A stretch of 64,000 nucleotides of DNA from Candidatus Bipolaricaulota bacterium (GCA_030550495.1 JAUQPG010000001.1:44512-108511), one strand, 5' to 3'. Counted from the stretch's first letter, positions 2,209 to 56,051 are shown. Numbers and translations are program-made. The notes: generated by a model from the sequence alone, not told the origin.

Positions 2209-2230
2209 GGGAGAGGGATACAGGTGAGGG
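2188..2230. repeat. Partial repeat copy (b): CTCCCTCTCCCC-tttg-AGGGAGAGGGA…GGTGAGGG, left outer arm missing
   Basis: Same inner hairpin as copy (d) plus the right outer arm. Spans the phosphoesterase stop and the folC RBS. Confidence 0.45.
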
Positions 2231-2234
2231 GAAG

Positions 2235-3512
2235 ATGACCTACGAAGCGATGCTCCAGAAACTCTATAATCTCAAGGGCACCGGGCTCGATTTGGAGCGC
2301 ATTTTAGGTCTGTTGGGAAACCCACACAAAAGCTTTCGCACCATTCGCGTCGCGGGCACTAACGGCAAGGGCTCGGTTTGCGCGTTCCTAGCGCAGATCT
2401 TACAAGAAGCGGGCTTGCGCATCGGGCTGTTTACCTCTCCCCATCTGGTCCATCCTGAAGAGCGCATTCGCGTCAATGATCGCGAGATCTCATGTGAAGA
2501 ATTTCACGCCCAGTTTGCGCGCATCTGGGCTGTGATCGAAGAGATCTATGGGGCTGAAAGCGAAAAGTATGCGCGGTTCTTCGAAGTGCTGACGCTGATG
2601 GCGCTCGATTACTTTCACAAAGAGCAAGTCGACTGGGCGGTGATCGAGTGTGGGGTGGGCGCACGGACAGACGCCACACGTGTTATCTCTGCTGAGGTCT
2701 CCGTCTTGACCAACGTCGAGCTGGACCACAAAGATTCTCTTGGGCAGACGATAACGCAAATCGCCTATCAGAAGGCTGCCGTCGTCTCCGACGGGGGAAC
2801 TTTAATCACCGCTGAGACCAAGCCCGAGGCGCTCGCGGAGATCGAACGCGAGTGTCGGCTCAAGAATGCGCGGCTGATTCAGCTCGATCTCTCAGGGCTT
2901 CGGGCAAAATCGAACAGTTGGGATGGCCAGTGCTTCGACTGGCAGGCTTGGAAAGGCTTGGAAATCTCGCTGTTGGGGGGGTATCAGCTTCAGAATGCCG
3001 CTTTGGCTGTTGCCGCTGCGAGTACTTTAGGCGAGCCCGCGATCACGGAGAGCGCGATCCGAGCAGGGCTGCGCAAGACTCGCTGGCCTGGTCGGATGGA
3101 GTTGCTCTGTAAAAACCCCTATGTTATGCTAGACGGGGCGAAGAACCCTGCGGGGATGCGGGCGCTGTGCACGGCGCTCTCCCCGTTGGAATACAAGCGT
3201 TGCATAGTAGTCTTAGGGATATCTGATCGCAAGGACGCAGCAGCCATGATCCGAGAGATCGTGCCCAAAGCTGACAGCGTGATCGTCACGCGCGCGGCCT
3301 TTCGGGGGGTCGACCCAGAATATTTAGCGTCTTTGATTCGGCCCTATGGTGTGCCCTGTACCGTTACATCAAAACCAGAGAGAGCCATAGAATTGGCCCT
3401 AGCTCAAGCACACCAACGCGATCTTATCTGTGTGACCGGATCGCTCTTTCTCGTGGGCGAGGTTCGGGCCTGGTGGAAAGGACAGGAGCATTCTTGTAAA
3501 GATTCTCATTGA
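2235..3512 (+). CDS. folC: Folylpolyglutamate synthase / dihydrofolate synthase
   Basis: Mur-ligase-family P-loop (IRVAGTNGKGSVCAFLA) and FolC-like body. ATG 2235 is preceded by GAGGGGAAG; the ORF-track start at 2205 is probably too far upstream. Confidence 0.8.
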   Translation: MTYEAMLQKLYNLKGTGLDLERILGLLGNPHKSFRTIRVAGTNGKGSVCAFLAQILQEAGLRIGLFTSPHLVHPEERIRVNDREISCEEFHAQFARIWAVIEEIYGAESEKYARFFEVLTLMALDYFHKEQVDWAVIECGVGARTDATRVISAEVSVLTNVELDHKDSLGQTITQIAYQKAAVVSDGGTLITAETKPEALAEIERECRLKNARLIQLDLSGLRAKSNSWDGQCFDWQAWKGLEISLLGGYQLQNAALAVAAASTLGEPAITESAIRAGLRKTRWPGRMELLCKNPYVMLDGAKNPAGMRALCTALSPLEYKRCIVVLGISDRKDAAAMIREIVPKADSVIVTRAAFRGVDPEYLASLIRPYGVPCTVTSKPERAIELALAQAHQRDLICVTGSLFLVGEVRAWWKGQEHSCKDSH

Positions 3513-24862: not shown

Positions 24863-25904
24863 GCCACGCGCTCGCCTCGTTTATGTAGGCAGCCGCTACG
24901 GACTCGAGACGCGAGTCCTGCCGCGATACCCGTGGATTGAATTTTATAAGCTCCCTATTCGTGGGATTGCTCGGCCGGGCCAGCGCCCCTTGTGGGCCCT
25001 CTGGGCGCTCCTCGCGATAGCACAGCTCCCGGCCGCGCTCGCTCAAGCCCTCTTCATTATCGCAACAGTGCGTCCTACGGCAATCATCGGTTTTGGAGGC
25101 TACGGGGCCTTTGCTCCGCTCGTGTGGGGAGTTCTCTTCAGAATCCCGATCTTTCTCCATGAGCAGAATCTCATTCCCGGGATGGTGACACGACTCTTTG
25201 CCCCCTGGGCAAGAAAAGTCTTTCTCACCTACCCCCAAACGGCCTGCTATCTCCGGGCACGGCACGTCATCGTGACCGGACTGCCCGTCCGCCCAGAGAT
25301 CCTTTCAGCTCGCCCTGATCATAGCCAGTTCGGATTGTACCCTGAGAGAAAGACCGTGCTGGTCTTTGGAGGCAGCAGAGGATCACAGATTCTTACAGAC
25401 GTTGCGCTCGCAGCACACCAGTATCTAAGTGACGTTCAGTTTTTGATTGTCTCACCCTCTTTCCCCTTGACGAGGAAGAGCGAGAGGGTAGTTCTCGTCC
25501 CATATATTCACGAGATGGGCACAGCTTTAGCAACAGCCGACGTCGTCATCTGTCGCGCTGGCGCTGCGACGTTAGCAGAACTCGTTGCTGTGGGTAAGCC
25601 CGCTATAGTTATCCCTTGGCCAGGCGCTGCGAACGATCATCAGACAATGAATGCTAAGGCTTACGCCCATCTTGGAGCTTTTTCTATAGTCCCAGAGTCT
25701 GAGCTCACCCCCCAACGGCTCGTGGAGGAGATCCAAAAAGCCCTCACCCAAAGCCGTGCCCCCCATATCAGAGGCCAGGGTGAGGGAGCGCTAAACTCTA
25801 TCTTATGCGAGGTGCTTTCCGATGCGACCAAAGAGCACGATACAGCTCCACTTTCTTGGGATCGGCGGCGACGGTATGAGTGGGTTGGCCAAAGTCTATT
25901 CTGA
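24777..25904 (+). CDS. murG: Lipid II GlcNAc transferase MurG (C-terminal ~25 aa encoded by or extended through a repeat copy)
   Basis: MKTFLVCGGGTGGHLYPALA…; GT28 C-terminal domain (…ICRAGAATLAEL…). Tail …ALTQSRAPHIRGQGEGA… is encoded by repeat copy (f). Confidence 0.85.
   Translation: MKTFLVCGGGTGGHLYPALATIEGLRRTEPRARLVYVGSRYGLETRVLPRYPWIEFYKLPIRGIARPGQRPLWALWALLAIAQLPAALAQALFIIATVRPTAIIGFGGYGAFAPLVWGVLFRIPIFLHEQNLIPGMVTRLFAPWARKVFLTYPQTACYLRARHVIVTGLPVRPEILSARPDHSQFGLYPERKTVLVFGGSRGSQILTDVALAAHQYLSDVQFLIVSPSFPLTRKSERVVLVPYIHEMGTALATADVVICRAGAATLAELVAVGKPAIVIPWPGAANDHQTMNAKAYAHLGAFSIVPESELTPQRLVEEIQKALTQSRAPHIRGQGEGALNSILCEVLSDATKEHDTAPLSWDRRRRYEWVGQSLF
25740..25787. repeat. Repeat copy (f), short variant: GCCCTCACCC-28 nt-GGGTGAGGGa, at the murG/murC junction
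   Basis: 9/10-bp outer inverted repeat read from sequence. Translated in-frame as the MurG tail; MurC ATG 25822 follows. Confidence 0.45.
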
Positions 25905-42701: not shown

Positions 42702-44789
42702 GTGGTTACCCGCGAAGTCTTCTGGAACATCTCGCCCCTTGGTGAACTGATCTTCTATCTCATCGCTCTGATCGCTGTCGTGATCTTTGCCTATGGTATC
42801 TATAGTCACGTGCGCCGCATCCTCCAGGGCAAGAGGGTTTCTTTCACTGTACGCCCGTTATTAGCCAAACTGAGCGCAGCGATAGCGAGCATCGCGGCCA
42901 ATAGAACTATTCTGCGCCATGACGCCCCTGCCGGCATGATGCACTTTTTAATCATGTGGGGCTTCATTGTGCTCTTCATCGGCACGGTCATCGTCACGAT
43001 TGAGTACGATCTGTTTCAAAAGATTTTGGGAATGGAGCACGGCTTTTGGGTCGGCTCGTTCTTCTTGGGGTACGAAGTGATCTTGGACACGCTGGGCGTG
43101 CTCTTTCTCATCGGGTTGATCTGGGCGCTGATACGGCGTTATGGGCTCAGGCCGCCGCAGCTGACGTGGAAGCCGTTAGATTTGGCACTGCCCCTGTGGC
43201 TGTTGTTCATCGGGATCACGGGCTTTCTCGTCGAGGGCTTGCGCCTGGCGGCGACGGCGGCAGAATTAGGGTACGATCCGCGCTGGTCGTGGGCGGGCTT
43301 TCTCGTCTCACAGTGGGTGCAGACTGCTTCCGTTGGGACATTGCGCGCATGGCATTTGGCTCTGTGGTGGATGCATGGGCTTTTAGCGTTGGGCTGGATC
43401 GCGTATCTGCCCTATGCACCGAAAGTAATGCACATTCTTTCAGCTGGGGTCAATCTCTTCTTCCAAGATATGCGTCCGCGCGGACGTTTAGAACTGTTAG
43501 ATGTCGAGGGCGCATTCGAGCGCAATGAAGTCTTGGGCTTTCAGACCCTGAAGGACTTAACGCGCAAAGACTTTTTAGATTTAGCGAGCTGCACCGAGTG
43601 CGGGCGCTGCGAAGCGAACTGTCCCGCGCATCTATCGGGGAAGATCCTCTCACCGCGCGAGATTATTTTAGAGTTACGCACCCACGCAAATGAAGAGTTT
43701 CCTGCATTTGGCAGGCCCAAAGAGCATAAACAGATCATTGGGTACTCGATCAAGCCTGAGGAGATCTGGGCGTGCACAACATGCATGGCCTGTGTCGAAG
43801 TCTGTCCGGTCTTCATCGATCCCTTGAATAAAATTATAGAGCTGCGTCGCAACGAAGTGATGATCCAAGACAAGTACCCTAAGGGGTTCACCGACGTTTT
43901 CAAGGGAATGGATGGGCGCGGCAACCCTTGGGACATGCCCGCGTCTGAACGCTTAGCGTGGATAAAGGGCCTCGACGTACCTATCGTTTCGGCATTAGCT
44001 GCGTCCAACCCCAGTCCAGATTTTGAGTATCTCTTCTTCGTTGGTTGTGCCGCGTCGTTCGATCCCCGGACGCAGAAGATCGCCCGCAGCGTCGTGAAGA
44101 TCCTACAGCACGCTCAGATTAAATTTGCCGTGCTCGGCGAGGAAGAGGGCTGCACCGGCGATCCTGCCCGCCGCATCGGCCATGAATATATCTTTCAGAT
44201 CCTCGCGAAGCAGAACATCGAGATTTTTAACAATTATAACGTCAAGAAGATCTTGACGATCTGCCCGCACTGCTTCAATACTCTCAAGAACGAATATCCT
44301 GCGCTGGGCGGGCAGTACGAAGTCGTCCATCATACGCAGCTCATCGAGCAATTACTGAGAGACGGACGGCTCCAGCTCACCCAAGAGATCCCGGCGACGA
44401 TTACGTATCACGATTCGTGCTATCTGGGGCGCTACAATCGTATCTTCGACGCACCGAGGGCTATCTTACAGAAGATTCCAGGTGTGAAGCTCGTGGAGAT
44501 GGAGCGGCATCGCGAGCGCGGGATGTGCTGCGGCGCGGGTGGCGGGCTGATGTGGCTTGAAGAAGAACCCGGCAAGCGCGTCAACGAACTCAGAGTCCAG
44601 CAAGCGCAAGCTGCGCTTGACGTTCATCTTCGCCGGCCAGCGGCCGGCGAAGCCGTACGGTCTAGGCGAAGCCTGGTGGCGAGCGCCTGTCCCTTCTGCA
44701 TGATCATGCTCGAAGATGGGATTAAGTCAAAGAACGCCGAGTTTGAGAACAAAGATATTGCAGAATTGGTCGCGGAGGCGCTGGGTTAG
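42702..44789 (+). CDS. Membrane-anchored HdrD/DsrK/GlpC-like Fe-S oxidoreductase (N-terminal ~5-TMS His-containing domain, 2x[4Fe-4S], two CCG domains)
   Basis: CTECGRCEANCP…CTTCMACVEVCP ferredoxin motifs. CCG-type Cys clusters (…FFVGCAAS…ILTICPHC… and …YHDSCYLGRYN…GMCCGAGGG…). N-terminal 220 aa hydrophobic with conserved His. Confidence 0.65.
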   Translation: MVTREVFWNISPLGELIFYLIALIAVVIFAYGIYSHVRRILQGKRVSFTVRPLLAKLSAAIASIAANRTILRHDAPAGMMHFLIMWGFIVLFIGTVIVTIEYDLFQKILGMEHGFWVGSFFLGYEVILDTLGVLFLIGLIWALIRRYGLRPPQLTWKPLDLALPLWLLFIGITGFLVEGLRLAATAAELGYDPRWSWAGFLVSQWVQTASVGTLRAWHLALWWMHGLLALGWIAYLPYAPKVMHILSAGVNLFFQDMRPRGRLELLDVEGAFERNEVLGFQTLKDLTRKDFLDLASCTECGRCEANCPAHLSGKILSPREIILELRTHANEEFPAFGRPKEHKQIIGYSIKPEEIWACTTCMACVEVCPVFIDPLNKIIELRRNEVMIQDKYPKGFTDVFKGMDGRGNPWDMPASERLAWIKGLDVPIVSALAASNPSPDFEYLFFVGCAASFDPRTQKIARSVVKILQHAQIKFAVLGEEEGCTGDPARRIGHEYIFQILAKQNIEIFNNYNVKKILTICPHCFNTLKNEYPALGGQYEVVHHTQLIEQLLRDGRLQLTQEIPATITYHDSCYLGRYNRIFDAPRAILQKIPGVKLVEMERHRERGMCCGAGGGLMWLEEEPGKRVNELRVQQAQAALDVHLRRPAAGEAVRSRRSLVASACPFCMIMLEDGIKSKNAEFENKDIAELVAEALG

Positions 44790-47173
44790 ATCCACACTCC
44801 TGGGATCGTCCGCCCGCAATTGGGGCAGTGCCCATCGCGAAGTCTGTTTTGTAGAATCGCAAACCCATAACGCTCGATGAGCAGCGCCCCACACCCTGGA
44901 CAGTATGTGTTCTCATAGCGCCCGGTCATGCCAGGGAGATTGCCCGTGTAGACGAAGTGCAGCCCCGCGTCGTAGCCGATCTGCGCCGCACGGATGAGCG
45001 TCTCTGCCGGAGTATTGTCCGAATCGGTCATCTTGTAGTCTTTATGAAACGCTGTGACGTGCCATGGGATATCCGGGGAGATCGAGACTAAAAACTTCGC
45101 GATCTGTCTTAGCTCGTCGTCGGAATCGTTGAAGCCCGGAACGACAAGCGTCACGATCTCCAGCCAAAAGCCCAGCTCGTGCACCATCGCAATGCCGTCG
45201 AGGACTTTCGATAAGACCGCTCCCAGCACACGATAATTTTTATCTTGAAAAGACTTTAGGTCTATCTTGTAGCAATCGAGATGCGGGCGCAGATACTGTA
45301 AAACTTCACGGGTCGCGTTGCCGTTGGAGACATAGCCCGTGAGCAACCCGAGCTTTTTGGCTTCTTTGAAGACTGCTACGGCCCACTCTGAGGTGATCAA
45401 GGGCTCGTTATATGAGCTGATGACGGCGCGCGCGCCGTAGCGCTGAGCTAGACTGACAAGCTCTTCTGGCGTGACGTCGTGAGGAAGTGCGCCGGCGCTT
45501 GTGTCGCGCAAGGTCTGCGAGATCTCCCAGTTTTGGCAGTTTTTCACAAGGCAGAAACCCGCTAGATAGCTGTGAGTTGTGTCGTCTATCTCTAGGTTAT
45601 AAACCGGCCCCTGATATGGTTCACGGCATATAGAGCGGATTGGAACCAGATAATAATCAGACGTCTCGCGATAGCGCCGCGGGACGGTCTTGTCCTTGTA
45701 CCAGACGATAGTATATTGCTCCGCGGCCTGGTACACGTGCCGATCCTCAATTTGCTTTGTCTGTGGCTGTACATTGATATAGAGTGAGGGAAGATTCCCT
45801 AGTTGGAGGACAAGCCATGCGACTCCATAAGCCAGAGCACGGGATTTCGTCGTGACCGTTATCTTGCCGTTTTCGTAGCAATGCCCATCTCCGTGGGTAT
45901 AAGCTTCCAGAAAGGCTTGGATAATTGACGGCGGAGCCTTAAAGATGACCTCTGGAACTCGCTTTTCCTGCGACTTCGCGCCGCAGAGCCGCTCAAAGAG
46001 CCAAGCTACTGATGCTTTGGTGACCTCCACGGCGAGGGTGGTGCGACGGCGAACGCGTCGAGCTGTCACGTCGAAGAGTTCTTGGAGCAGGGTACAGATC
46101 TCGTTAGCTAGTCTGTGTTCTTGCGGCCCAAGGGCGAAGATGAGTGTGCGGCTGTTAGGGCGCCCCTTCTCGAGGACTACGCAGCCTTCGGCGCAATAAT
46201 ACCCGAGGAGTCGAGCGAGGCGTTCCTCCACGGGGAGATAGAGAGGGACTCCAGGTCTATGCTCTTTCAAGAAGCGAACTCGGCCGCCTTCTATTACGAG
46301 GCGCTGCCTGCGCTCTTCTTGCCACAGCCCGCGATAGACTTTACTGCGCACGTGCCGTATGTAGGATGGGTCCTTACCTAAAGCTTGTCCCAGTTCTCGT
46401 GAGCTTACTCCTTCCTGGGTAGCGACCATGAGCCATTCGACTTGATGCGGCGCCAATTTGTGAGGGATCTTATAGGAGGGGTGCAACTCTTCTAAGAGAG
46501 CGGACACGTCCAACGTTACTGATGTGGAGCAGGTAAAGCGCTTTGGGATGACTAAGAAATGGTGGGGTGTGAGTTCTTCAGCTCTTACGATCTCGATAGG
46601 GCCCCCTTCAGGGTTCGTGGTGGCGTAGAGACGATGGTCGGGAGTGCAGCGAAGCGCTGGGAGGTAATAAGGCTTAATAGTGATCAGCTCGCCTTCATAG
46701 TAATGCTTGAAGGCGGCCTGCACAGGGCGAAGCTCGCCAGCCTCCGTGACCACCTGGAGCTGGGGACGTGAAGCTTCTCCGTCGGGGAGCATTAGTCTCT
46801 CTTCTCCCAAACAGAAAATCTCTTCAATAGAGAGGACTCCTCGCTCGGTCGTCACAGGCGTTTCTGGGGAGAAGCAGTATGGGCAATGCAGATCGCATCC
46901 GAGCATCCCAAATGTGAGTGTGCGTGCGCCAGGCAACACGTGATAGAACGGCTTTTTCTCGATGGGGTCCAACCCCAACGAGCTGACATACCCCCAGGGC
47001 ACGTAGAGTTTTCCGTCTCTATTGAAGCGCACCTGGCAGATACCCCGTTTCCCCTCGAAGATCACGCAGCGATGAGCGCACGCATAGCAGCGCACTCTCT
47101 TATCGTCGAGCTTCTCGTAGAGCTCGCCCTCGCGCGTACGCGCATCGAGCAGCTCTGCAAGCGTCGCGATCAT
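44786..47173 (-). CDS. AmmeMemoRadiSam-system radical SAM enzyme interrupted by a 446-aa intein
   Basis: Extein is …RCYACAHRCVI…GICQVRFN…GCDLHCPY|…|CQNWEISQT… plus the C-terminal half (…LPGMTGRYENTYCPGCGALLIE…). Start ATG 47173 with upstream GAGGGG. Confidence 0.75.
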   Translation of the reverse strand: MIATLAELLDARTREGELYEKLDDKRVRCYACAHRCVIFEGKRGICQVRFNRDGKLYVPWGYVSSLGLDPIEKKPFYHVLPGARTLTFGMLGCDLHCPYCFSPETPVTTERGVLSIEEIFCLGEERLMLPDGEASRPQLQVVTEAGELRPVQAAFKHYYEGELITIKPYYLPALRCTPDHRLYATTNPEGGPIEIVRAEELTPHHFLVIPKRFTCSTSVTLDVSALLEELHPSYKIPHKLAPHQVEWLMVATQEGVSSRELGQALGKDPSYIRHVRSKVYRGLWQEERRQRLVIEGGRVRFLKEHRPGVPLYLPVEERLARLLGYYCAEGCVVLEKGRPNSRTLIFALGPQEHRLANEICTLLQELFDVTARRVRRRTTLAVEVTKASVAWLFERLCGAKSQEKRVPEVIFKAPPSIIQAFLEAYTHGDGHCYENGKITVTTKSRALAYGVAWLVLQLGNLPSLYINVQPQTKQIEDRHVYQAAEQYTIVWYKDKTVPRRYRETSDYYLVPIRSICREPYQGPVYNLEIDDTTHSYLAGFCLVKNCQNWEISQTLRDTSAGALPHDVTPEELVSLAQRYGARAVISSYNEPLITSEWAVAVFKEAKKLGLLTGYVSNGNATREVLQYLRPHLDCYKIDLKSFQDKNYRVLGAVLSKVLDGIAMVHELGFWLEIVTLVVPGFNDSDDELRQIAKFLVSISPDIPWHVTAFHKDYKMTDSDNTPAETLIRAAQIGYDAGLHFVYTGNLPGMTGRYENTYCPGCGALLIERYGFAILQNRLRDGHCPNCGRTIPGVWI
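45539..46876 (-). other. Intein with LAGLIDADG homing-endonuclease domain, inserted in the CxxxCxxC motif of the radical SAM gene
   Basis: Begins Cys1 (CFSPETPVTTERG = block A). Block B TPDH. Two LAGLIDADG-like motifs (LARLLGYYCAEGCV; IIQAFLEAYTHGDGH). Blocks F/G VYNLEIDDTTHSYLAGFCLVKN, then extein Cys+1. Confidence 0.7.
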
Positions 47174-47177
47174 CGAG

Positions 47178-47984
47178 TTACCCCTCATAGAACGCGTAGC
47201 ACCCATAGCCCACAACTCGGAATCTATCCCCCGCTGTATCCCCGGAATTGCGATAGTCCAAGAGCTTCGCTTTCCATCCGTGATCACGAGCAATCTGCAT
47301 CAGTGTCAGGATCGCGGTCTTCCCGCAGGCTTCGACGCGCTCCTCCATCAACGCAAAATCGAAATTTTCAATGGCTCGGTGGGCTAGAGCGTCGCGCCCT
47401 ACGGCTTCCTCGTAGGGATAATAGTGGCTCAGATCCGAGCTGACAATAATGAGATCTATGTCTTCTAGATATGGCGCGAGTGTTCGTGCTAGATTGCGAT
47501 AGTCGCATTCGCCCGTCAAGATGGGGAAGATCTCACAGTTGGGAAGCACAGTCTGCACGAAGGGGAGCTGCACTTCTAAAGAATGCTCTGGAGCATGAGC
47601 GTTGGGATTATTCTGGAGATCGCCGCGCTCGAGGGCGCGAGCGATCAAGCCTTTGGCGCACTGTACCAAGCCGAGCGGGGTCTGCCAGGCGTCACAGTCT
47701 ACAATTGCCGCGCCGACGAAGTAGACGTAGTGTGCCGGGCCAAGAAGAAGCACTCTTAACTGAGAACTGTCAAACTTGGAACTGTAAACTGTTTTGTAGC
47801 CCGTTGCCGCCACCGGCCCAGAGTAGACATACCCAGCGTGGGGCACGATCAGCCCGCGCAGTCTGCCTCCAAGTGTCTTGGGCTGTGCTTGAGCAAGCAA
47901 AGTCTCGACGGTCTTGCGCAAGCGCTCCGAGCTTGCAGGATAGAAGCTTCCTGCGACGGCTGCAGGCCGAATGCGCTCCATCAC
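47178..47984 (-). CDS. Memo-like protein (AmmeMemoRadiSam system protein B)
   Basis: MMERIRPAAVAGSFYPA…IVPHAGYVYSGPVAA… typical of the MEMO1/DUF52 family. Stop lies 4 nt upstream of the radical SAM start. Confidence 0.75.
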   Translation of the reverse strand: MMERIRPAAVAGSFYPASSERLRKTVETLLAQAQPKTLGGRLRGLIVPHAGYVYSGPVAATGYKTVYSSKFDSSQLRVLLLGPAHYVYFVGAAIVDCDAWQTPLGLVQCAKGLIARALERGDLQNNPNAHAPEHSLEVQLPFVQTVLPNCEIFPILTGECDYRNLARTLAPYLEDIDLIIVSSDLSHYYPYEEAVGRDALAHRAIENFDFALMEERVEACGKTAILTLMQIARDHGWKAKLLDYRNSGDTAGDRFRVVGYGCYAFYEG

Positions 47985-48069: not shown

Positions 48070-49485
48070 ATGAGCTATCGCATCGAGAAGGACTCCCTTG
48101 GCGAAGTCAAAGTCCCGCAGGACGCCTACTGGGGCGCGCAGACCCAACGCGCCGTCGAGAATTTCCCCATCAGCGGGGTGCGCTTCCCCCGCACGTTTAT
48201 CCGTGCGTTAGGGTTGGTGAAGCTGTGCGCTGCCAAAGTCAATGCGCAGCTGAAATTACTTGACGAGCGTCATGCTCAGGCTATCGAGCAAGCCGCCCGC
48301 GAAGTCGTCGACGGCAAATTAGATGAGCACTTCCCCATCGATATCTTTCAAACGGGTTCAGGCACCTCGACAAATATGAACGCCAACGAAGTGATTGCTA
48401 ACCGCGCGTGCGAAATTTTAGGAGTCAAGCGCGGCGACAAGACCGCCGTGCACCCCAACGATCATGTCAATCTGGGGCAGTCGTCCAATGACGTGATCCC
48501 CGCGTGCGTGCACATCTCCGCGGCGCTCGCCGTGCATGAGCAACTCCTGCCCGCTTTAGAACACTTACAGAAAGCTCTTGAAGCCAAAGCCCGCGAATTT
48601 TCAGATATCGTCAAGACCGGGCGCACACACTTGATGGACGCTATGCCCGTCACGTTGGGGCAGGAGTTTTCCGGGTACGCTGCGCAAATCGCGCTCGCGA
48701 GAGAGCGCATCGAAGCCGTGCTCCCTAGACTCTATGAGTTGGCTCTGGGGGGCACAGCTGTTGGCACGGGGATCAACACGCACCCCGAATTCGGGAAGAG
48801 AATTGCCCAAGCCCTCGCGCAAGAGACAAAAATTGCTTTTAAAGAGACGCGCAATCACTTCGCGGCGCAAGCCGCGATGGAGACTGCCGTGGAGCTGAGC
48901 GGTGCGCTGAAAGCATTGGCTATTGCACTTTACAAGATTGCTAATGATTTGCGATGGATGAACTCCGGCCCGCAAGCGGGCCTCGCGGAGATTCGGCTCC
49001 CGGCGCTCCAGCCCGGCTCTTCGATCATGCCCGGCAAAGTCAATCCCGTCATCCCCGAAGCCGTGATGATGGTCGCCATGCAAGTCATGGGCAACGACAT
49101 CGTCATTACACAAGCCGCGGCGTCGGGGAACTTCGAGCTCAATGTTGCTCTACCCGTGATCGCCCATAATCTATTGCAATCGCTGGCGATCTTGAGCAAC
49201 GCGTGCCGCGTCTTTGCCGACAAGTGTATTATGGGCATCGTCGCCAATCGCGAGCACATGGAGCGTCTCGCGAATCAGAACGCGATCCTCGCGACGGCGC
49301 TCAACCCGTATATCGGCTACGATAAAGCTGCCGAAGTCGTCAAGAGGGCGATGGCTGAAGGGAAGACGATCCGCGAGGTCGTCCTCGAGATGAAGCTCTT
49401 GCCCCCAGAAAAGCTCGACGAAGTCCTAGACGTGCGCAAGATGACTCAAGGGGGCTTCATTGCGGGTGTGGGAGGCGGTGGCTGA
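48070..49485 (+). CDS. fumC: Class II fumarate hydratase (aspartase/fumarase superfamily)
   Basis: …[21 protein letters not shown]… and the GSSxMPxKxN signature ([11 protein letters not shown]). Confidence 0.8.
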
Positions 49486-49509
49486 GTGCTGATCGCAGCC
49501 GAAAATCCT

Positions 49510-49941
49510 TCAGCGTTGGCCAAGCAATTCTGTGAACGTGAAAACGGAGCCGTGGACCTGTCGTGCGAGCTGTTCCGCACGCTCGCGATCGCCCAAAGCG
49601 ACAATCCCGTGGCCCATCGGCGTGTGTAGCTCCGAACTCTTGACGAAGAACGCGCTGTCAGCCTTGAGCCACGCTTCGCCTTCGTAATCGTGTACCCAGA
49701 AGACGGCAACATCTTCTCGATGGGCTTTAGAGAAGGCGAGCATATCCCCAATGTCGTCGAAGGAGCGCCACGTGCCCTCACGAGTGAGATACGCGGCGGC
49801 AAAACGCGCCTCGCTGATGATCATCCCGCACTGAGCACACCTGTCGCGCCCGTAGCGAATCTGTGGAGGGCGCTCCCGCGACGCTTGACATCCTGAGAGG
49901 CTCACAGCAACGAGCGCGACCAAAAACGCCCTGCGGGTCAT
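49510..49941 (-). CDS. nosL: NosL copper-chaperone lipoprotein
   Basis: Lipobox LSGC then …DRCAQCGMIISE…, the NosL CxxCxM signature. Confidence 0.7.
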   Translation of the reverse strand: MTRRAFLVALVAVSLSGCQASRERPPQIRYGRDRCAQCGMIISEARFAAAYLTREGTWRSFDDIGDMLAFSKAHREDVAVFWVHDYEGEAWLKADSAFFVKSSELHTPMGHGIVALGDRERAEQLARQVHGSVFTFTELLGQR

Positions 49942-50762
49942 TCCAGCGCCCCCCGATGACGAAAGATCACGACACTCAGCGCAAGAGCTGACACTGTCCA
50001 TCCCACAAGCAGCGCGAGCAAGAAGGGCACCAGCGCATCGCCAAACGCGCGCAGCGCATACAGCCCTGCCGGGCCTAAGATCTCTAAATCTCCCTGAACG
50101 ATCAAGACTGCCAAGAGCTTAAAGCTCTGTAACGGGTTGAGCAGCGCCAGACTGAAGAGCTGTCCCACGCTGAGCCGGAGCACGAGCGCTGTGCCCATGA
50201 CGCCAAGATCGCTCAAGAACACTAAGAGAAGCCAGACGAAGAGCGCTGTGCCCATCGCGGTGGCTCCCTTCCGCGCCAGCGCCGAGATCAAAAACCCCAC
50301 AGCCAAACTCAGCAAGACCAGCAATACCGTCAGGCCCCACAGCGCAAGATAGAGATCGCTCTGAACGACCCCCCCGTGCCACGCGATCAGAAGCCCGCTT
50401 ATGCCAAAGCCTGCGCTCAGCGCTGCTATCAAAGCGAAAGCCAAACCGAGATACTTCCCGATGAGCACTTCGGCGGCGCTGACGGGTTGCGCCAAGAGAA
50501 AGAGCAGCGTGCCGCGCTCGCGCTCCCCAGCGATGCTCAATGCCCCCAGGGTCAGCCCCATCAGCGGGACGATCAAGAGGATCAGATTGATAAGACTGGC
50601 TCCGGTGCGCCCAAAGCCAGCGACCCCATAACTTCCCAGAGCGCTCAGTCCCAACCACATCAATGCCGACGCTAACGCGACAAAGACGAGCGCATAGAGC
50701 CACAGCCATCTATTGCGCCGCGCCTCTCGAACCTCTCTGTGAGCAAAAAGCAGCGTGTTCAT
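49938..50762 (-). CDS. nosY: ABC-2 type permease NosY
   Basis: Six-TMS ABC-2 permease immediately downstream of the nosD-nosF ORF, with the ABC-2 hallmark …SIAGERERGTLLFLLAQPV…. Confidence 0.7.
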   Translation of the reverse strand: MNTLLFAHREVREARRNRWLWLYALVFVALASALMWLGLSALGSYGVAGFGRTGASLINLILLIVPLMGLTLGALSIAGERERGTLLFLLAQPVSAAEVLIGKYLGLAFALIAALSAGFGISGLLIAWHGGVVQSDLYLALWGLTVLLVLLSLAVGFLISALARKGATAMGTALFVWLLLVFLSDLGVMGTALVLRLSVGQLFSLALLNPLQSFKLLAVLIVQGDLEILGPAGLYALRAFGDALVPFLLALLVGWTVSALALSVVIFRHRGALE

Positions 50763-52849
50763 AAGAGCTCAGAGACCCCTCTCCCGTCAATGTGCTCGAT
50801 CTGCACCAACCGCCCTTGTTCGAGCACCAACACCCGGTCAGCAACAGCGAGGATCTCATTATGGTGATGCGACGAGAAGATCAGCGTCTTTCCGGAGCTT
50901 TTGAGTTCGTTCAGCAGCTGCAAAAACTCTTTGCGGGTCTGGGTGTCGAGGCTCGCCGTTGGCTCGTCCAGGAGCAAGATCGGCGGATCGCCTAAGAGCG
51001 CTATAGCGAGCGCTACGCGCTGCTTCATCCCCCCAGAGAGCGTGCCAATTCTTTTATGCAAGAATTTGTCAAGCCCTAAACGCTGTATCACCGGGGGAAC
51101 AGCTTCTCGCAAGACGCCCTTCAGCCGAGCAAAGAAGAGAAGAGCTTCGCCGACGGTGAAGTCGTCAGGAATCTGAATCTGTTGGGGCACGAAGCCCAGC
51201 AAGCGTCGCACTTCTTTCCCTTGCCGGTGTGGATCGAGCCCGTCAAGCGCGATGGCTCCGTCATAGCGCAGCAATCCCAACAGACAGTGCAAGACCGTAG
51301 ATTTGCCTGCGCCGTTGGGCCCCCACAGCGCGAGGGCTTCGCCTGCCCTCACCGTGAACGAGAGATTCTCAACGGCTATAACATGGCCGAAGCGCTTGGT
51401 GAGGCCGCGCACGACGATCTCCCCCTCACCCCCAGCCCCTCTCCCCTTTGAGGGAGAGGGGAGCAAGGGGTGAGGGATAAGCCAGCGCACAACGCCCCAT
51501 CCGAAGCCGATGATTAGACTGATCCCCACAAACAACAACCATCCTGTCGCTGCTTGTGGCATCCCACTCCGTAGCGATGCTGCGCGCGCGAATTCCAAGG
51601 TCGGCAGTACCGGCGTCATCAGCGGCTGCGGGTCTATAAGCTTTGGCTGCGGCTGGAAGATAGGCAAGGCCCGCGCCGCAAACTCCAACGCTTGGATCGC
51701 CGGGCTGTAGAGAAAGAGCTTCATCTGGGGGTGTCGGTCTAGTAAGTCCTCGACAAGCCGTTCAGACTTGTAGGGCAGATCGCCTAAGCCGTCGCCGTCG
51801 GCGTCATAGCCGAGATAATCCCCCCAAAAGTTTCTCTCCCAGAGGTTGCCCACCAGCTGGCCCCCGCCAGCGATCCCCACGTGCTCAAAGTTCTCGATGA
51901 AGCTATTTTCAGTGAAGAGATCCCCGCGCACCGACGGCAGCATCATCACGGCCGTCTCGTTATAGGCGAAGAGATTCTTGCGAAAGACGACCGGCGTCTC
52001 TGGAGCTGACGGCGAGTTGTCGACAAAGACCCCGACGCTGTTGTCGGCGATCACGTTCTCGGCGACAGAAACGCTATCAGAGTCTTTGAGGCCGATGCCG
52101 TAGCCGCTGGGACCGCGATGCCCTAGAGAGAGATTCTTTGCTATCGTCACGCCCCGGCTGTACATAGCGTAGATACCCACAAAGTTTTTGAGCAGCGCGT
52201 TCTCTTCTATCCGTATCTCTTGAGCATACATGAGATGGATGCCGTAGCGCCCGCCTACAAAGCGATTCCCCCACACCGACACATTCTGCGAGTACCAGAT
52301 GATAGCATCGCGGGCGTTATACGTTTCGTTCTCTTGAATGAGCACGTCGGAGCTGTACCATACGCGAATTGCGTCGCCGCGCTCGGCCTCAGAGACGTCC
52401 AACCCAACGATCTTGTTACGACGGATGACGCTCCCCGGCGCGTCCTTGAGATAGATCCCAAAGAGCACATCAGAGAGCGTATTCTCTTCGATGATCGCAC
52501 GCGGAGCTTCAACTAAGATCGCTGAGTCTTCGTGGGCCAGGCTGCGCCCAGAATTTTTGAGCACAAAGCCCTTGAGCATGACATCTGGGGCAGTGACGCG
52601 CACGATAGTGCCCTGCCCCTGGCCGTCGAGCACAGCTCCCTCACTGATTAGAGTCAGGGGTTTATCAATGACGATTGGGCCGGTGTAGACCCCTTGAGGC
52701 ACGCGCAGGGTCGCTCCTGACGGCGCAGAAGCGATCAAGGCTTGGAGGGCCCTCATCCCTGGCCCCTCTCCCGTGGGGGAGCCACGGGAGAGGGGAGCTA
52801 AGAGAGCTATGCTCACAAGCAGTATGCCTAACGCTCTAATCAGCGTCAC
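50759..52849 (-). CDS. nosD: NosD (periplasmic beta-helix) fused in one ORF to NosF (ABC ATPase); linker encoded by a palindromic repeat
   Basis: Signal peptide; parallel-beta-helix repeats (…NKIVGLDVSEAERGDAIRVWYSS…). TM segment, repeat-encoded …PHPLLPSPSKGRGAGGEGE…, then Walker A GPNGAGKST, LSGGMKQRVALA, Walker B LLLDEPTASLD. Confidence 0.7.
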   Translation of the reverse strand: MTLIRALGILLVSIALLAPLSRGSPTGEGPGMRALQALIASAPSGATLRVPQGVYTGPIVIDKPLTLISEGAVLDGQGQGTIVRVTAPDVMLKGFVLKNSGRSLAHEDSAILVEAPRAIIEENTLSDVLFGIYLKDAPGSVIRRNKIVGLDVSEAERGDAIRVWYSSDVLIQENETYNARDAIIWYSQNVSVWGNRFVGGRYGIHLMYAQEIRIEENALLKNFVGIYAMYSRGVTIAKNLSLGHRGPSGYGIGLKDSDSVSVAENVIADNSVGVFVDNSPSAPETPVVFRKNLFAYNETAVMMLPSVRGDLFTENSFIENFEHVGIAGGGQLVGNLWERNFWGDYLGYDADGDGLGDLPYKSERLVEDLLDRHPQMKLFLYSPAIQALEFAARALPIFQPQPKLIDPQPLMTPVLPTLEFARAASLRSGMPQAATGWLLFVGISLIIGFGWGVVRWLIPHPLLPSPSKGRGAGGEGEIVVRGLTKRFGHVIAVENLSFTVRAGEALALWGPNGAGKSTVLHCLLGLLRYDGAIALDGLDPHRQGKEVRRLLGFVPQQIQIPDDFTVGEALLFFARLKGVLREAVPPVIQRLGLDKFLHKRIGTLSGGMKQRVALAIALLGDPPILLLDEPTASLDTQTRKEFLQLLNELKSSGKTLIFSSHHHNEILAVADRVLVLEQGRLVQIEHIDGRGVSELL
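51423..51476. repeat. Repeat copy (d): CCCTCACCCC-cag-CCCCTCTCCCC-tttg-AGGGAGAGGGG-agcaa-GGGGTGAGGG at the NosD/NosF junction
   Basis: Nested 10-bp outer and 11-bp inner inverted repeats read directly; in-frame within ORF 50759..52849. Confidence 0.6.
52748..52795. repeat. Repeat copy (e): GGCCCTCAtCCC…CCCCTCTCCCGTGG-gggag-CCACGGGAGAGGGG; right outer arm absent
   Basis: Inner hairpin identical to copy (a). Encodes …LSRGSPTGEGPG… immediately after the NosD signal peptide. Confidence 0.5.
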
Positions 52850-53498
52850 GCTGTGCCTCCAGCGAGATTACGATCGGACCGATACGAATGGGAATCTTTT
52901 GTTCTATGGCTTGACGGATCACGCGACGGTAGTGCAGGCCGAGAGCCACTAAGAGCGCCGCTGCGACAGCAAGCCAGAAGCCGGCTTGCAGCTCGGCGAC
53001 CGTCTTGAACTGCCCCACCGTGCCTACGCCAAAGACTGGGGGAGTAAACGGCGGGATGCGCAGCGGCGCGTTGGGATCAAGCTCATGCCCATACCGATAG
53101 AGCCAGAAGTACATATCTCCCAAAAATATAGCAGGGAAGAGCATAGCGGGGAGAGCGAGCACCGCCGCCCAGCGCCGCCGCGTGTACGCGAGCGTACTGG
53201 CGAGCAACGCTGCCGCCCCAATCGCCAACGGTGCCAAGAACTTCTCGACCTGCGCGGCCTGGTTGAGCTTCTTCATCCCGACGTAATGATTGAGATTGTC
53301 TACTTCGGTGACGTCCCCTGATAGATGTGTCACGTAGACGGCGACGCGCAGCCCTCCTGGATATTGCGGCGCCATGAGCGTCAGGCTCCAATACGGGAAG
53401 AGCACCGAAAGCAACACAAGCCACGACGCGATGGTGAAAAGGGCGCGGGGAAACCGAAAGGGATCCTCCGCAAGCCATGCTCTCAATCGCTCGCTCAT
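52836..53498 (-). CDS. Polytopic membrane protein at the nosB position of clade II nos clusters (NosB-like)
   Basis: 220 aa, ~5 hydrophobic segments, no recognisable motif. Call rests on synteny between nosZ and nosD. Confidence 0.4.
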   Translation of the reverse strand: MSERLRAWLAEDPFRFPRALFTIASWLVLLSVLFPYWSLTLMAPQYPGGLRVAVYVTHLSGDVTEVDNLNHYVGMKKLNQAAQVEKFLAPLAIGAAALLASTLAYTRRRWAAVLALPAMLFPAIFLGDMYFWLYRYGHELDPNAPLRIPPFTPPVFGVGTVGQFKTVAELQAGFWLAVAAALLVALGLHYRRVIRQAIEQKIPIRIGPIVISLEAQRDAD

Positions 53499-53502
53499 AG
53501 CG

Positions 53503-55500
53503 CTAGGGCTCCACTAAGAAGTACCCGACCATCTCTAAGTGTAGCGCTGAGCAGAACTCAGTGCAGTAGAAGACGAACGTGCCGCTCTGGTCTGCGTCGA
53601 ACTCGACTGTTCCTGTCTCGCCCGGCTCTAAGCTCATATGAATATTGTATCCGCCCAGAGCAAACGCGTGAGAAGCATCGCGCGCCCGCTCGATGTTCGT
53701 GATGTGCCAGATCACGTGATCGCCCTTCTTGACAGTGATGCGCTCGGGATAGAAGTGGCTGCGCACCGCGGTCATCCAAATCTCTACAACGCGACGCCCG
53801 TTCTCATAGCGCACCTCGACGCGCTCGCGCCCAGGCTCAGTCGCATTGGGGTCCTTAGCCATCTTCACTGCGTTCCAGCCGACCTCGGGATACACTTCAA
53901 AAGGCTTGAGCTTGTCAACCTTGATCATCTGGGCGTAGTGGGGCTCGCCAATACCGATGGGCATATCATAGAGCAGTTGCATCTTCTCGCCACTGATGTC
54001 TATGAGCTGGAAGTTCTGCGGGTGGAGCGGCCCCACAGGCACGAAGCGATCGACGGACCATTTGTTGAGGGCGACAACATACTTGCCGTCAGGAGAGACC
54101 GTGTCCCCTTCCGCCGCAGCGATGTGCCCAATATTATAGTGCACCGGGAGCTTCTCGACGAGCTTCCACGGCTCTTTCCCGTCTGTACGATACGGCCCGC
54201 CTAACGTCCATTTTGCCACCGCGCTGTCCAAGAACATCGACGTATACGCGAAGCCCTTGTCGTCGTAGACCGTGTGCAACGGCCCCAAGCCGAGCTCGAC
54301 TTGCGCTTCGACGACGTCTTCAAGTCTTAAGATGGGCACGCCGTAGGCATCGCGCTCAGTTGGCCCTGCAGCAATTGCTTTCTGAATCTTCTCAAACGAA
54401 TAGACCGTCACGTGGGGATCGAGCTTGCCCCCAACCACGATATACTCCCCTCCAGGGGTGACGTCCACGCCGTGCGGGCTTTTGGGCTCCGGAGCGAAGA
54501 AGAGCACTCCAGACTGGGCCGCTGTCTCTAAGCGAATGACGCGCATCCCGCTGATTGTTTCGTATTGCCCGTTCTGGAGAAGCTCTTCAGCTTTCTTCCA
54601 ATTGATGATGTGCAGAAAGTCCATCTCGTTCTTGGCTGTGCCGGCTTCGAAGGGGGGCTTGCCTTCTTCAATGCCGCCGGTGGCCATCTCGGAATTGAAC
54701 GAGTTGCAGAAGACCCAGCCCTCAGAGACTTTCTTTCCCGCATCACACAGGTCTTGCCAATAGGGGGGCAGCTCGATCTGGAACGATCGCGCGGGATCGA
54801 CGCGCCCCTGAGCCCGATCAAATGCCCAGAACGTGATCACTCCCCGGTATTTCTCTCTGTACTCGTCAAGTGAAGCGTACTGCCAGCCCAGAGGCACGGC
54901 GTATTGCGGGCCTTCGACGACGTACTCAGTGTTAGGGGTGACAAACCCGCCGCCGTGATCGCTAATAGCGTTTGGATTCTTGAGAATCTGCTTGGTCTCG
55001 AAATCTCTCAGGTCAATCACAGCAAGTCGGGCGTTGGCCTTGTCATTAATAAAGAGAAATTGCCCGTCGTACTCGCCGTTGGTCTCGGAGAGCGCCGGGT
55101 GGTGCGTATCGCCCCAAAGAATAGGCTTGCCGTTAGCTGCGCCGCCGGCTAAGACTTCCATCGTCTCTTTTTCGCCGTAGCCGTAGCCCTGCCACGGTTC
55201 GGGCGTGAAGACGCCGATGACTTTCAGCAAGCGCATAGACGGAATCCCGATGACCAGCACTTGCCCAGAATGCCCCCCTGACGCAAAGAGAATATATTCG
55301 TCATATTTGCCTGAGGGGACATACGTCTTGAGGGCTGCTGTGATGTCATCGTGGGTCAGGCCGCGCGCTTGGGCGATCTGCAAGACTTCTGTGGGCAGGC
55401 CTGCTTGGGGTGTCTGAGCTGTCTTGGGTGCTTGCCCGCCACAGCCGACGACAAAGAGACTGAGAACGACAAGGACGACAATCGTCAGAGAATTTTTCAT
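53503..55500 (-). CDS. nosZ: Nitrous-oxide reductase NosZ, clade II (Sec/lipoprotein signal, CuA cupredoxin tail)
   Basis: Signal peptide MKNSLTIVVLVVLSLFVVGCGG (lipobox, no twin-Arg). Seven-bladed propeller body. C-terminal CuA motif HAFALGGYNIHMSLEPGETGTVEFDADQSGTFVFYCTEFCSALHLEM. Confidence 0.85.
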   Translation of the reverse strand: MKNSLTIVVLVVLSLFVVGCGGQAPKTAQTPQAGLPTEVLQIAQARGLTHDDITAALKTYVPSGKYDEYILFASGGHSGQVLVIGIPSMRLLKVIGVFTPEPWQGYGYGEKETMEVLAGGAANGKPILWGDTHHPALSETNGEYDGQFLFINDKANARLAVIDLRDFETKQILKNPNAISDHGGGFVTPNTEYVVEGPQYAVPLGWQYASLDEYREKYRGVITFWAFDRAQGRVDPARSFQIELPPYWQDLCDAGKKVSEGWVFCNSFNSEMATGGIEEGKPPFEAGTAKNEMDFLHIINWKKAEELLQNGQYETISGMRVIRLETAAQSGVLFFAPEPKSPHGVDVTPGGEYIVVGGKLDPHVTVYSFEKIQKAIAAGPTERDAYGVPILRLEDVVEAQVELGLGPLHTVYDDKGFAYTSMFLDSAVAKWTLGGPYRTDGKEPWKLVEKLPVHYNIGHIAAAEGDTVSPDGKYVVALNKWSVDRFVPVGPLHPQNFQLIDISGEKMQLLYDMPIGIGEPHYAQMIKVDKLKPFEVYPEVGWNAVKMAKDPNATEPGRERVEVRYENGRRVVEIWMTAVRSHFYPERITVKKGDHVIWHITNIERARDASHAFALGGYNIHMSLEPGETGTVEFDADQSGTFVFYCTEFCSALHLEMVGYFLVEP

Positions 55501-55502
55501 AG

Positions 55503-55955
55503 CTATCTCCTCCTTCGAGTTTTCTGCTGAGTTGTTTCACGCAGCGCGCGAGCGAGATCCTCCAGGGTCGTCCCCTGGAGATAGTTTCTGATCTGGTCGC
55601 GCACCGGCTTCCAGCGAGAGTGATGCGGGCAGGGATGCTGATCGCTGCAGCCGGCCAGCCCGATCACGCAGCTTTCCAAGGCGGCTGTGCCGTCAATCGC
55701 TTGAACGATCTCATAGAGCGTGATCTGCGAAGCCGGGCGAGCCAGGGCAAAACCCCCGTGCGGCCCGCGCGTCGAAGCGAGAATCCCTGCGCGCGTCAGC
55801 GTCTGAAAGACTTTTCCGAGAAAGTGCTGGGGAATCTTCTCGCGTTCAGCAAGCTCCTTCACCGGGCTAGGCTGTCCTGATTCTGATTGGCTGAGCGCCA
55901 GCTGGGTCAGCGCCCGGATCGCATATCCTGCCGCATTGGAGTAGAGCATCGTCAT
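55503..55955 (-). CDS. Rrf2-family (NsrR/IscR-like) transcriptional regulator with three-Cys cluster site; first gene of the nos operon
   Basis: N-terminal wHTH (…GYAIRALTQLA…PVKELAEREKIPQHFLGKVFQTL…) and C-x6-C-x5-C (ESCVIGLAGCSDQHPCP). Stop lies 2 nt before the nosZ start. Confidence 0.75.
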   Translation of the reverse strand: MTMLYSNAAGYAIRALTQLALSQSESGQPSPVKELAEREKIPQHFLGKVFQTLTRAGILASTRGPHGGFALARPASQITLYEIVQAIDGTAALESCVIGLAGCSDQHPCPHHSRWKPVRDQIRNYLQGTTLEDLARALRETTQQKTRRRR

Positions 55956-55987
55956 AATTCAGATATTCGGACCTTGATATCTGAATT
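55956..55987 (-). promoter_or_regulatory. Perfect 11-10-11 inverted repeat AATTCAGATAT-N10-ATATCTGAATT abutting the Rrf2 start codon and overlapping a TATAAT
   Basis: Read directly. On the minus strand: …gggaTATAATtcagatat-caaggtccga-atatctgaatt-ATG. Confidence 0.4.
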
Positions 55988-56051
55988 ATATCCCACAACA
56001 CAGAGGGTGCAATGATCCGCGTCATGACACGAGCTGACTCAGATCATTTTT

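Follow-up and report, generated by a model that had tools for sequence, protein, structure and literature searches.

The nosDF reading frame and its gene cluster

The window analyzed here is a 64,000-nucleotide stretch of DNA from a Candidatus Bipolaricaulota bacterium (GCA_030550495.1 JAUQPG010000001.1:44512-108511), and its minus strand contains nosDF, one open reading frame (ORF) that encodes both NosD and the ATP-binding cassette (ABC) ATPase NosF. The gene (50759-52849) starts at a GTG codon located 6 nucleotides downstream of a GGAGG motif, overlaps the upstream ORF by 14 nucleotides at its 5' end and extends for 696 codons with zero internal stops, as reported in a preliminary description of the window. 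The NosDF protein consists of a signal peptide, a NosD domain, a predicted transmembrane (TM) helix, a linker and a NosF domain. A Kyte-Doolittle scan with a 19-residue window yields only two hydrophobic peaks, at residues 1-21 (2.19) and 436-454 (2.03). The first peak defines the signal-peptide region (residues 1 to ~22; 52784-52849), in which AlphaFold2, run on a 27-sequence alignment, predicts a helix at residues 2-17. The ATG of M32 was considered as the true start and rejected, given that a periplasmic NosD requires a signal peptide, which this start would eliminate; moreover, repeat-free orthologues likewise open with a hydrophobic leader.

The NosD domain (residues 35-412; 51614-52747) comprises a beta-helix and a C-terminal helical part. 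Residues 35-412 match the NCBIfam NosD family TIGR04247 over its full length (profile positions 1-377 of 377; 390.3 bits against a cut-off of 300), and residues 146-347 match Pfam NosD (PF05048; 132 bits against a cut-off of 23.6). NosD of Pseudomonas stutzeri (PDB 7o0y_A) aligns with an E value of 5.9e-41, residues 42-417 of the query pairing with residues 38-424 of the 436-residue chain. In the AlphaFold2 model, the beta-helix strands span residues 46-338, with a predicted local distance difference test (pLDDT) score mostly above 85, and the predicted fold is the right-handed beta-helix of NosD. With a hydrophobic segment present at its N-terminus, NosD is presumably exported to the periplasm. 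The domain is followed by the predicted TM anchor TGWLLFVGISLIIGFGWGVVRWLI (residues ~436-458; 51476-51544), which is supported by the second hydropathy peak and by a modeled helix at residues 433-449. This anchor bears out the earlier proposal that a TM helix joins the two halves in a periplasmic NosD, TM helix, cytoplasmic NosF topology. P. stutzeri NosD, with a chain that stops approximately 12 residues past the aligned part, does not contain such a helix.

The NosF domain (residues 478-686; 50792-51418) was delimited using ABC_tran, PDB, alignment and AlphaFold2 fold evidence. Pfam ABC_tran (PF00005) matches residues 494-632 (3.8e-31), and residues 478-683 align with residues 4-208 of P. 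stutzeri NosF (PDB 7o0y_B; E value, 3.5e-33). The domain contains the Walker A (GPNGAGKS), signature (LSGGMKQR) and Walker B (LLLDEP) motifs of an ABC ATPase, and G510-x-N-G-A-G-K516, L604-S-G-G607, D628-E629 and the H-loop residue H661 are invariant in the alignment. In the PDB comparison of this ATPase domain, ABCA-type ATPases outscore P. stutzeri NosF, and the assignment as NosF rests on gene context, with nosD upstream and nosY and nosL downstream.

nosDF is embedded in a cluster with the minus-strand order Rrf2, nosZ, nosB-like, nosDF, nosY and nosL. The predicted Rrf2-family regulator heads the cluster (55503-55955) and is assigned through PF02082 matches of the equivalent gene in three related loci (L084, L001 and L002). 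It is followed by nosZ (53503-55500), which encodes a Sec-dependent (clade II) nitrous-oxide reductase that scores 869.7 bits against TIGR04246 (cut-off, 625), in addition to a Pfam nos_propeller match, whereas the Tat-type NosZ model reaches only 428.7, under its cut-off of 625. The next gene (52836-53498) encodes a 220-residue membrane protein that gave no match in Pfam and NCBIfam scans. This protein carries the motifs LNHYVGM and YGHE beside nosZ, and conserved stretches of NosB read LNHYIGM and YGHN (PMC9697520). The NosB-like gene occupies the same position in all relatives examined. Downstream of nosDF, the ATG of nosY (49938-50762; ABC-2 permease by Pfam) overlaps the nosDF TGA stop in the sequence ATGA. 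The nosL gene (49510-49941; Pfam NosL) is given in the 143-residue form called in L084 and L001, and the mechanically defined ORF reaches 50001. This arrangement is that of a NosDFY-type maturation system within a Sec-type (clade II) nos cluster.

Fused and split nosD and nosF in relatives

Is the joining of NosD and NosF a peculiarity of this genome? A protein search of a large collection returned at least 120 matches with 99% to 45% identity to the window protein, and all but one contain NosD and ABC_tran in one chain. The fused proteins listed are roughly 670-1000 residues long. A few entries are shorter (513-557 residues) and may be partial, and the one protein that lacks ABC_tran is among these. 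Their named sources are Bipolaricaulia, Chloroflexota, Thermoflexus, Tectimicrobiota, Calditrichaeota, Phycisphaerae and Vulcanimicrobiota. Among named sources, the nearest relatives of nosDF come from metagenome-assembled genomes (MAGs) labeled Candidatus Fraserbacteria and Candidatus Bipolaricaulia (L003 and P0004; 72% identity for both labels), and identity to Bipolaricaulia and Fraserbacteria entries is 72-74% overall.

The preliminary description had proposed that nosD/nosF junctions be compared in related clade II clusters, and this comparison was made in DNA, where the frame connecting the NosD match to the NosF match was examined directly to avoid gene-caller bias. The locus set comprises 83 loci that passed match-length filters, namely, the window, GTDB species representatives (from the DNA of the best 80 of approximately 500 loci, each a species representative) and six other assemblies. 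nosD and nosF are fused in 37 of the 83 loci, separated by a same-frame stop in 5 and placed in different frames in 41, where the nosD stop and the nosF start overlap. The fused loci span several phyla. Thus, the statement that NosD and NosF are normally separate proteins holds for the studied model organisms but not for this lineage. In a neighbor-joining tree, which is crude because it uses BLOSUM distances and carries no support values, fused and split states are interleaved, and the clade of the window, which includes Thermoflexus, is uniformly fused.

The architecture around the junction is shared irrespective of the fusion state. The hydrophobic helix at the C-terminus of NosD is found at the same place in fused and split relatives, which indicates that the anchor is a lineage feature rather than a by-product of the repeat described below. 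In an alignment of the fused proteins, the helix position is fixed and NosF starts at the same column, whereas the intervening linker is highly variable in length and sequence.

Translation signals at the NosF N-terminus were compared between 39 fused and 48 split genes, with a Shine-Dalgarno (SD) sequence counted when it matched at least 5 nucleotides. In 46 of the 48 split genes, the NosF start is an ATG or GTG that immediately precedes the codon aligned with I478 of the window protein. An ATG near the NosF N-terminus (for fused genes, within four codons upstream) was detected in 39 of the 48 split genes compared with 9 of the 39 fused genes. An in-frame start accompanied by an SD sequence occurs in 29 of 48 split genes and in 4 of 39 fused genes. 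The window has a GAG codon at the canonical NosF start position, and the GTG of V480 is its only in-frame start codon near the NosF N-terminus.

Several relatives exhibit other junction forms. In five loci (L012, L019, L020, L023 and L030), nosD and nosF share a frame that is interrupted by one or a few stops inside an apparent former linker, NosF restarts at an ATG, and the split state has apparently arisen by secondary fission of a fused gene. More extensive joining was also observed. Two frames, L047:3893-7081 (Fimbriimonadales KatS3mg016; 1062 stop-to-stop codons) and L026:3149-7156 (Bacterium HR15; 1335 stop-to-stop codons), contain NosD, ABC_tran and the ABC-2 permease and are apparently NosD-NosF-NosY triple fusions of two Armatimonadota-type MAGs; the approximately 290 extra N-terminal codons of the HR15 frame could encode NosB. 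The 995-residue Phycisphaerae protein P0100 matches the NosB-like ORF of the window at residues 42-206 (53% identity; E value, 2e-47), NosD and ABC_tran follow this part, and the protein is a predicted NosB-NosD-NosF fusion. The 910-residue protein P0028 has an N-terminal extension similar to that of P0100. The existence of such NosD-NosF-NosY and NosB-NosD-NosF forms in relatives indicates that covalent linkage within the nos module is tolerated.

A 156-kilobase ENA metagenome contig (ERZ27245615 k141_18802) has 99% identity to the window at the NosDF protein and the same gene order over 22 kilobases. A scan of metagenome contigs with the NosDF protein detected one unrelated ABC ATPase locus only.

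A palindromic repeat at two sites of nosDF

Two copies of a G/C-rich palindromic repeat lie within nosDF. The linker copy (51423-51476; plus strand, CCCTCACCCCCAGCCCCTCTCCCCTTTGAGGGAGAGGGGAGCAAGGGGTGAGGG) is built of nested inverted repeats, with outer arms CCCTCACCCC/GGGGTGAGGG and inner arms CCCCTCTCCCC/GGGAGAGGGG. It is translated in frame as the predicted cytoplasmic linker, residues ~458-476, and the linker peptide given in the preliminary description for this repeat was correct to within one codon. The N-terminal copy (52750-52795) consists of a perfect 14-nucleotide stem, CCCCTCTCCCGTGG/CCACGGGAGAGGGG (52763-52795), and one outer arm that extends on the left to 52750. As previously noted, it is positioned just past the hydrophobic core of the signal peptide, where it encodes residues P19-R33 with the peptide sequence PLSRGSPTGEGPGMR. 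The repeat motif is present in the window beyond chance. Its core 9-mer CCCTCTCCC occurs 9 times against 0.81 expected occurrences, a count that none of 100 shuffled controls reached, and 0 matches are expected for the full palindrome pattern.

The RNA hairpins of the linker and N-terminal copies have predicted energies of -49.6 kcal/mol (z, -4.7) and -35.1 kcal/mol (z, -2.6), respectively. An Rfam scan of positions 49000-56000 found no family for the repeat, and its only matches over the palindrome, to eukaryotic microRNA hairpin models, were sub-threshold and were dismissed as generic hairpin similarity.

The window contains two further clear copies, and all four overlap coding sequence. A longer copy (1841-1909), with a hairpin of -67.7 kcal/mol (z, -8.6), lies within a putative phosphoesterase ORF (1399-2208, plus strand), where it is translated in frame and encodes the peptide ALTPSPSPVGQPRERGGRKAGVRA. 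The match of this ORF to TIGR00024 extends over 252 residues, compared with 215 positions of the profile. A shorter copy (2188-2230) covers the last codons of the same ORF, ending in LLSPSPL and the stop, together with the region of the TTG start codon of the ORF that follows (2205-3512), so the repeat forms the gene junction there.

Both peptides encoded by the repeat in nosDF reside in segments predicted to be unstructured, given that the AlphaFold2 pLDDT falls below 50 at residues 16-30 and 444-473. Residues 450-477 are modeled without secondary structure, and the flanking NosD and NosF domains are predicted confidently.

The distribution of the repeat is narrower than that of the fusion. 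Only the nearest relatives, L001, L084 and L086, share the exact palindrome, and the linkers of Thermoflexus (L004 and L005) and of more distant fused proteins contain no palindrome. The linkers of close relatives carry 1 to 3 palindromes each, always in frame, and measure 39, 41, 44, 76 or 86 residues between GFGWG and RFG. The N-terminal copy is present in L001 and absent from L002. It is common to P0002-P0006, P0009 and P0011-P0024 and missing in P0007, P0008 and P0010, which are of similar distance. The element can also differ in orientation. The linker copy of L001, whose protein is 93% identical, matches the reverse complement of the window copy at 50 of 54 positions compared with 41 of 56 for the direct strand; it lies between the same flanks and encodes a different peptide, PHPQPLSPVRERGARGEGE. 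Such a flipped element could have arisen through inversion in place between its inverted arms or through re-insertion.

A probable single chain for the fused protein, and alternatives

We propose that NosDF is probably a genuine single polypeptide that belongs to a widespread clade II NosDF lineage and that a dispersed repeat has settled in tolerant segments of it without being the maker of the fusion. NosD of this lineage is anchored in the membrane by its C-terminus, and its gene either overlaps nosF in the ATGA manner or is fused to it. Based on the domain order and topology and on the P. stutzeri NosDFY structures, the signal peptide would export the NosD beta-helix to the periplasm, and helix ~436-458 would span the membrane, with the Arg and Lys residues after it on the cytoplasmic side. 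There, the linker of approximately 20 residues would lead to the NosF ATPase, which would dimerize and dock on the separately encoded NosY permease. ATP-driven NosY movements may then let NosD take copper from NosL and pass it to NosZ. The repeat would have been accommodated at two unstructured, length-tolerant sites, the cytoplasmic linker and the junction between the signal peptide and mature NosD, and would be translated in frame as a spacer rich in Pro, Ser, Gly, Arg and Glu, as a tolerated passenger. In the clade of the window, the linker appears to be a hot spot at which the element is gained, duplicated or inverted in place, with selection probably keeping only frame-preserving variants.

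Some points weigh against this proposal. In P. stutzeri, one NosD is combined with two NosF subunits (a ratio taken from PDB chain counts), and an obligatory 1:1 fusion needs another assembly or an idle NosD. The crude neighbor-joining tree does not fix how many fusions and fissions took place or in which direction. The TM and signal-peptide assignments depend on hydropathy and a low-confidence AlphaFold2 helix. Sequence conservation is the basis on which translation into one chain is proposed. Finally, a G-rich GGGGGAG sequence lies 6 nucleotides before the GTG of V480, the same geometry as at the annotated nosDF start.

The last point bears on an alternative, the internal initiation of NosF at this GTG, that the preliminary description had raised. 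In this reading, NosF would be made mainly as a separate protein, with the G-rich right arm of the repeat as the SD sequence. The product of the long ORF would in that case be NosD with a useless tail, or else a mixture would result in which the 1:2 ratio of NosD to NosF seen in the solved complex is restored. The V480 GTG is in frame and is kept in all close relatives, and same-frame split relatives such as L012 restart NosF inside the former linker. However, initiation at V480 would leave NosF without the first three residues of strand beta-1, which align with residues 4-6 of P. stutzeri NosF, and the SD-like bases are paired in the -49.6 kcal/mol stem. Moreover, GTG is the commonest Val codon of nosDF (27 of 57). 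The canonical start position is a GAG codon in the window, and fused genes as a class have mostly lost the NosF start and its ribosome-binding site, which makes internal initiation unlikely. The reading frame is also kept across many independent changes in linker length, which would be needless if NosF started itself, and NosD-NosF-NosY triple fusions exist. We therefore disfavor internal initiation, although it fares best among the alternatives to a single chain.

The fusion protein could alternatively be synthesized and then cut in its disordered, repeat-encoded linker, which would release an anchored NosD and a NosF in a strict 1:1 ratio. The predicted disorder and high variability of the linker are compatible with cleavage, and split relatives function with the same TM-anchored NosD. 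However, the linker contains no protease motif and no conserved sequence, and no observation requires a cut; cleavage thus seems still less probable than internal initiation. There is a slim chance that the linker hairpin acts on the mRNA or the ribosome, through pausing, partial processing or low re-initiation at the GTG, to give some free NosF. If so, free NosF beside NosDF would allow an asymmetric D1F2Y2 complex as in Pseudomonas, and selection for such tuning would account for an element that has repeatedly been gained, duplicated and flipped in the linker.

The preliminary description had also suggested that the fusion arose when the palindrome took the place of the nosD stop and the nosF start, an event that would belong to this genome or to a recent ancestor. 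In the window and close relatives, the stretch from the TM helix to NosF is all repeat sequence, and the stop and start of split relatives overlap within a few bases, such that a small insertion could fuse them. However, repeat-free fused genes are found in the sister Thermoflexus lineages and in many phyla, fusion is observed in 37 of the 83 loci, and the exact palindrome is restricted to the three closest relatives. Because the whole clade of the window is fused, including its repeat-free Thermoflexus members, and the exact palindrome occurs in the nearest relatives only, the fusion is judged from these sequences to predate the repeat, and its creation by the repeat is highly improbable. A sequencing or assembly error that removed a stop or shifted the frame, to which G/C-rich hairpins are prone and which the preliminary description had allowed for, can be set aside, given that the identical open frame is found in the independent assemblies L084 (ENA; 99% protein identity) and L001 (Logan; 93%, with the element inverted) and the same frame in dozens of further assemblies.

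Comparison with known systems

The single polypeptide that we favor differs in organization from NosDFY of P. stutzeri (PDB 7o0y and related entries). The two systems share the NosD and NosF matches, the genes for NosY and NosL alongside and a presumed role in NosZ maturation. However, NosD, NosF and NosY are three proteins in P. stutzeri, whereas NosD and NosF form one ORF in the window, unlike the separate chains of a D1F2Y2 complex. In addition, the window protein has an extra C-terminal membrane helix on NosD and a covalently attached NosF, which implies one NosD per NosF, and its cluster is of the Sec type (clade II) with a NosB-like gene instead of the Tat type with NosR and NosX. The PDB entries comprise 16 NosD chains (16 entries) and 30 NosF chains (15 entries). 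The only structural model describes one soluble NosD on a NosF2Y2 transporter, and many environmentally important Sec-type (clade II) nitrous oxide reducers, including Chloroflexota, Planctomycetota, Bipolaricaulota/Fraserbacteria and Calditrichota, have a membrane-anchored NosD instead. The NosD-NosF fusion (37 of the 83 loci, sometimes with NosB or NosY) fixes the two proteins at a 1:1 ratio, which suggests that the complex is assembled differently. This gap is testable and is not specific to the window.

The closest counterparts of NosDF are uncharacterized fused proteins of 700-800 residues annotated as NosD family maturation proteins, which occur in Chloroflexota, Bipolaricaulota/Fraserbacteria, Planctomycetota, Calditrichota, Acidobacteriota and other MAGs. 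They share its architecture and the gene order Rrf2-nosZ-nosB-nosDF-nosY-nosL, and the window nosDF is an ordinary member of this lineage. Linker length and sequence differ in every lineage, and a palindrome in the linker and after the signal peptide distinguishes only the closest relatives. Literature searches for a NosD-NosF fusion found no description and returned reporter fusions, NosB-NosL and unrelated proteins. The NosDF fusion lineage is widespread and apparently undescribed, abundant in databases and routinely labeled NosD. The nearest precedent found for the fusion of neighboring nos accessory genes in clade II, with different partners, is provided by the NosB-NosL fusions of Bacteroidota (PMC9697520).

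The repeat resembles several classes of dispersed palindromes. Rickettsia palindromic elements (RPEs) are reportedly short palindromes inserted in frame in protein-coding genes. Like RPEs, the window element is a dispersed palindrome that ORFs tolerate at permissive positions, where its translation adds a peptide to the protein. In-frame, non-disrupting insertion is evident from the absence of the N-terminal copy in orthologues of the L002 and P0007 type, from the extra length of the phosphoesterase and from the in-frame variation of the linker copies in number and orientation. However, no sequence relationship to RPEs is expected, the window element is extremely G/C-rich, its host is unrelated, and its length is approximately 45-70 nucleotides compared with approximately 100-150 nucleotides for RPEs. 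Repetitive extragenic palindromic (REP) sequences and bacterial interspersed mosaic elements (BIMEs) are likewise short imperfect palindromes with many copies and a stable RNA or DNA hairpin, but REPs are extragenic by definition, whereas the window copies lie in coding sequence; a RAYT-type transposase was not seen, although no search aimed at one was made. Miniature inverted-repeat transposable elements (MITEs) also have inverted arms, and the window element is shorter than typical MITEs. The repeat provides a small, clean example of a G/C palindrome that survives in genes only at disordered protein segments, with copies flipped or multiplied between close relatives.

Two other features of the window were observed. 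An inverted pair, CCCTCACCC and GGGTGAGGG, with an unrelated 28-nucleotide interior (25741-25786) could belong to the repeat family as a degenerate or distinct member. On the minus strand, a gene for an 835-residue radical S-adenosylmethionine (SAM) protein (44786-47293) adjoins a Memo-like gene (47178-47984). Given that its equivalent in L084 has Intein_splicing and LAGLIDADG matches, this gene is predicted to encode an intein-containing radical-SAM enzyme.

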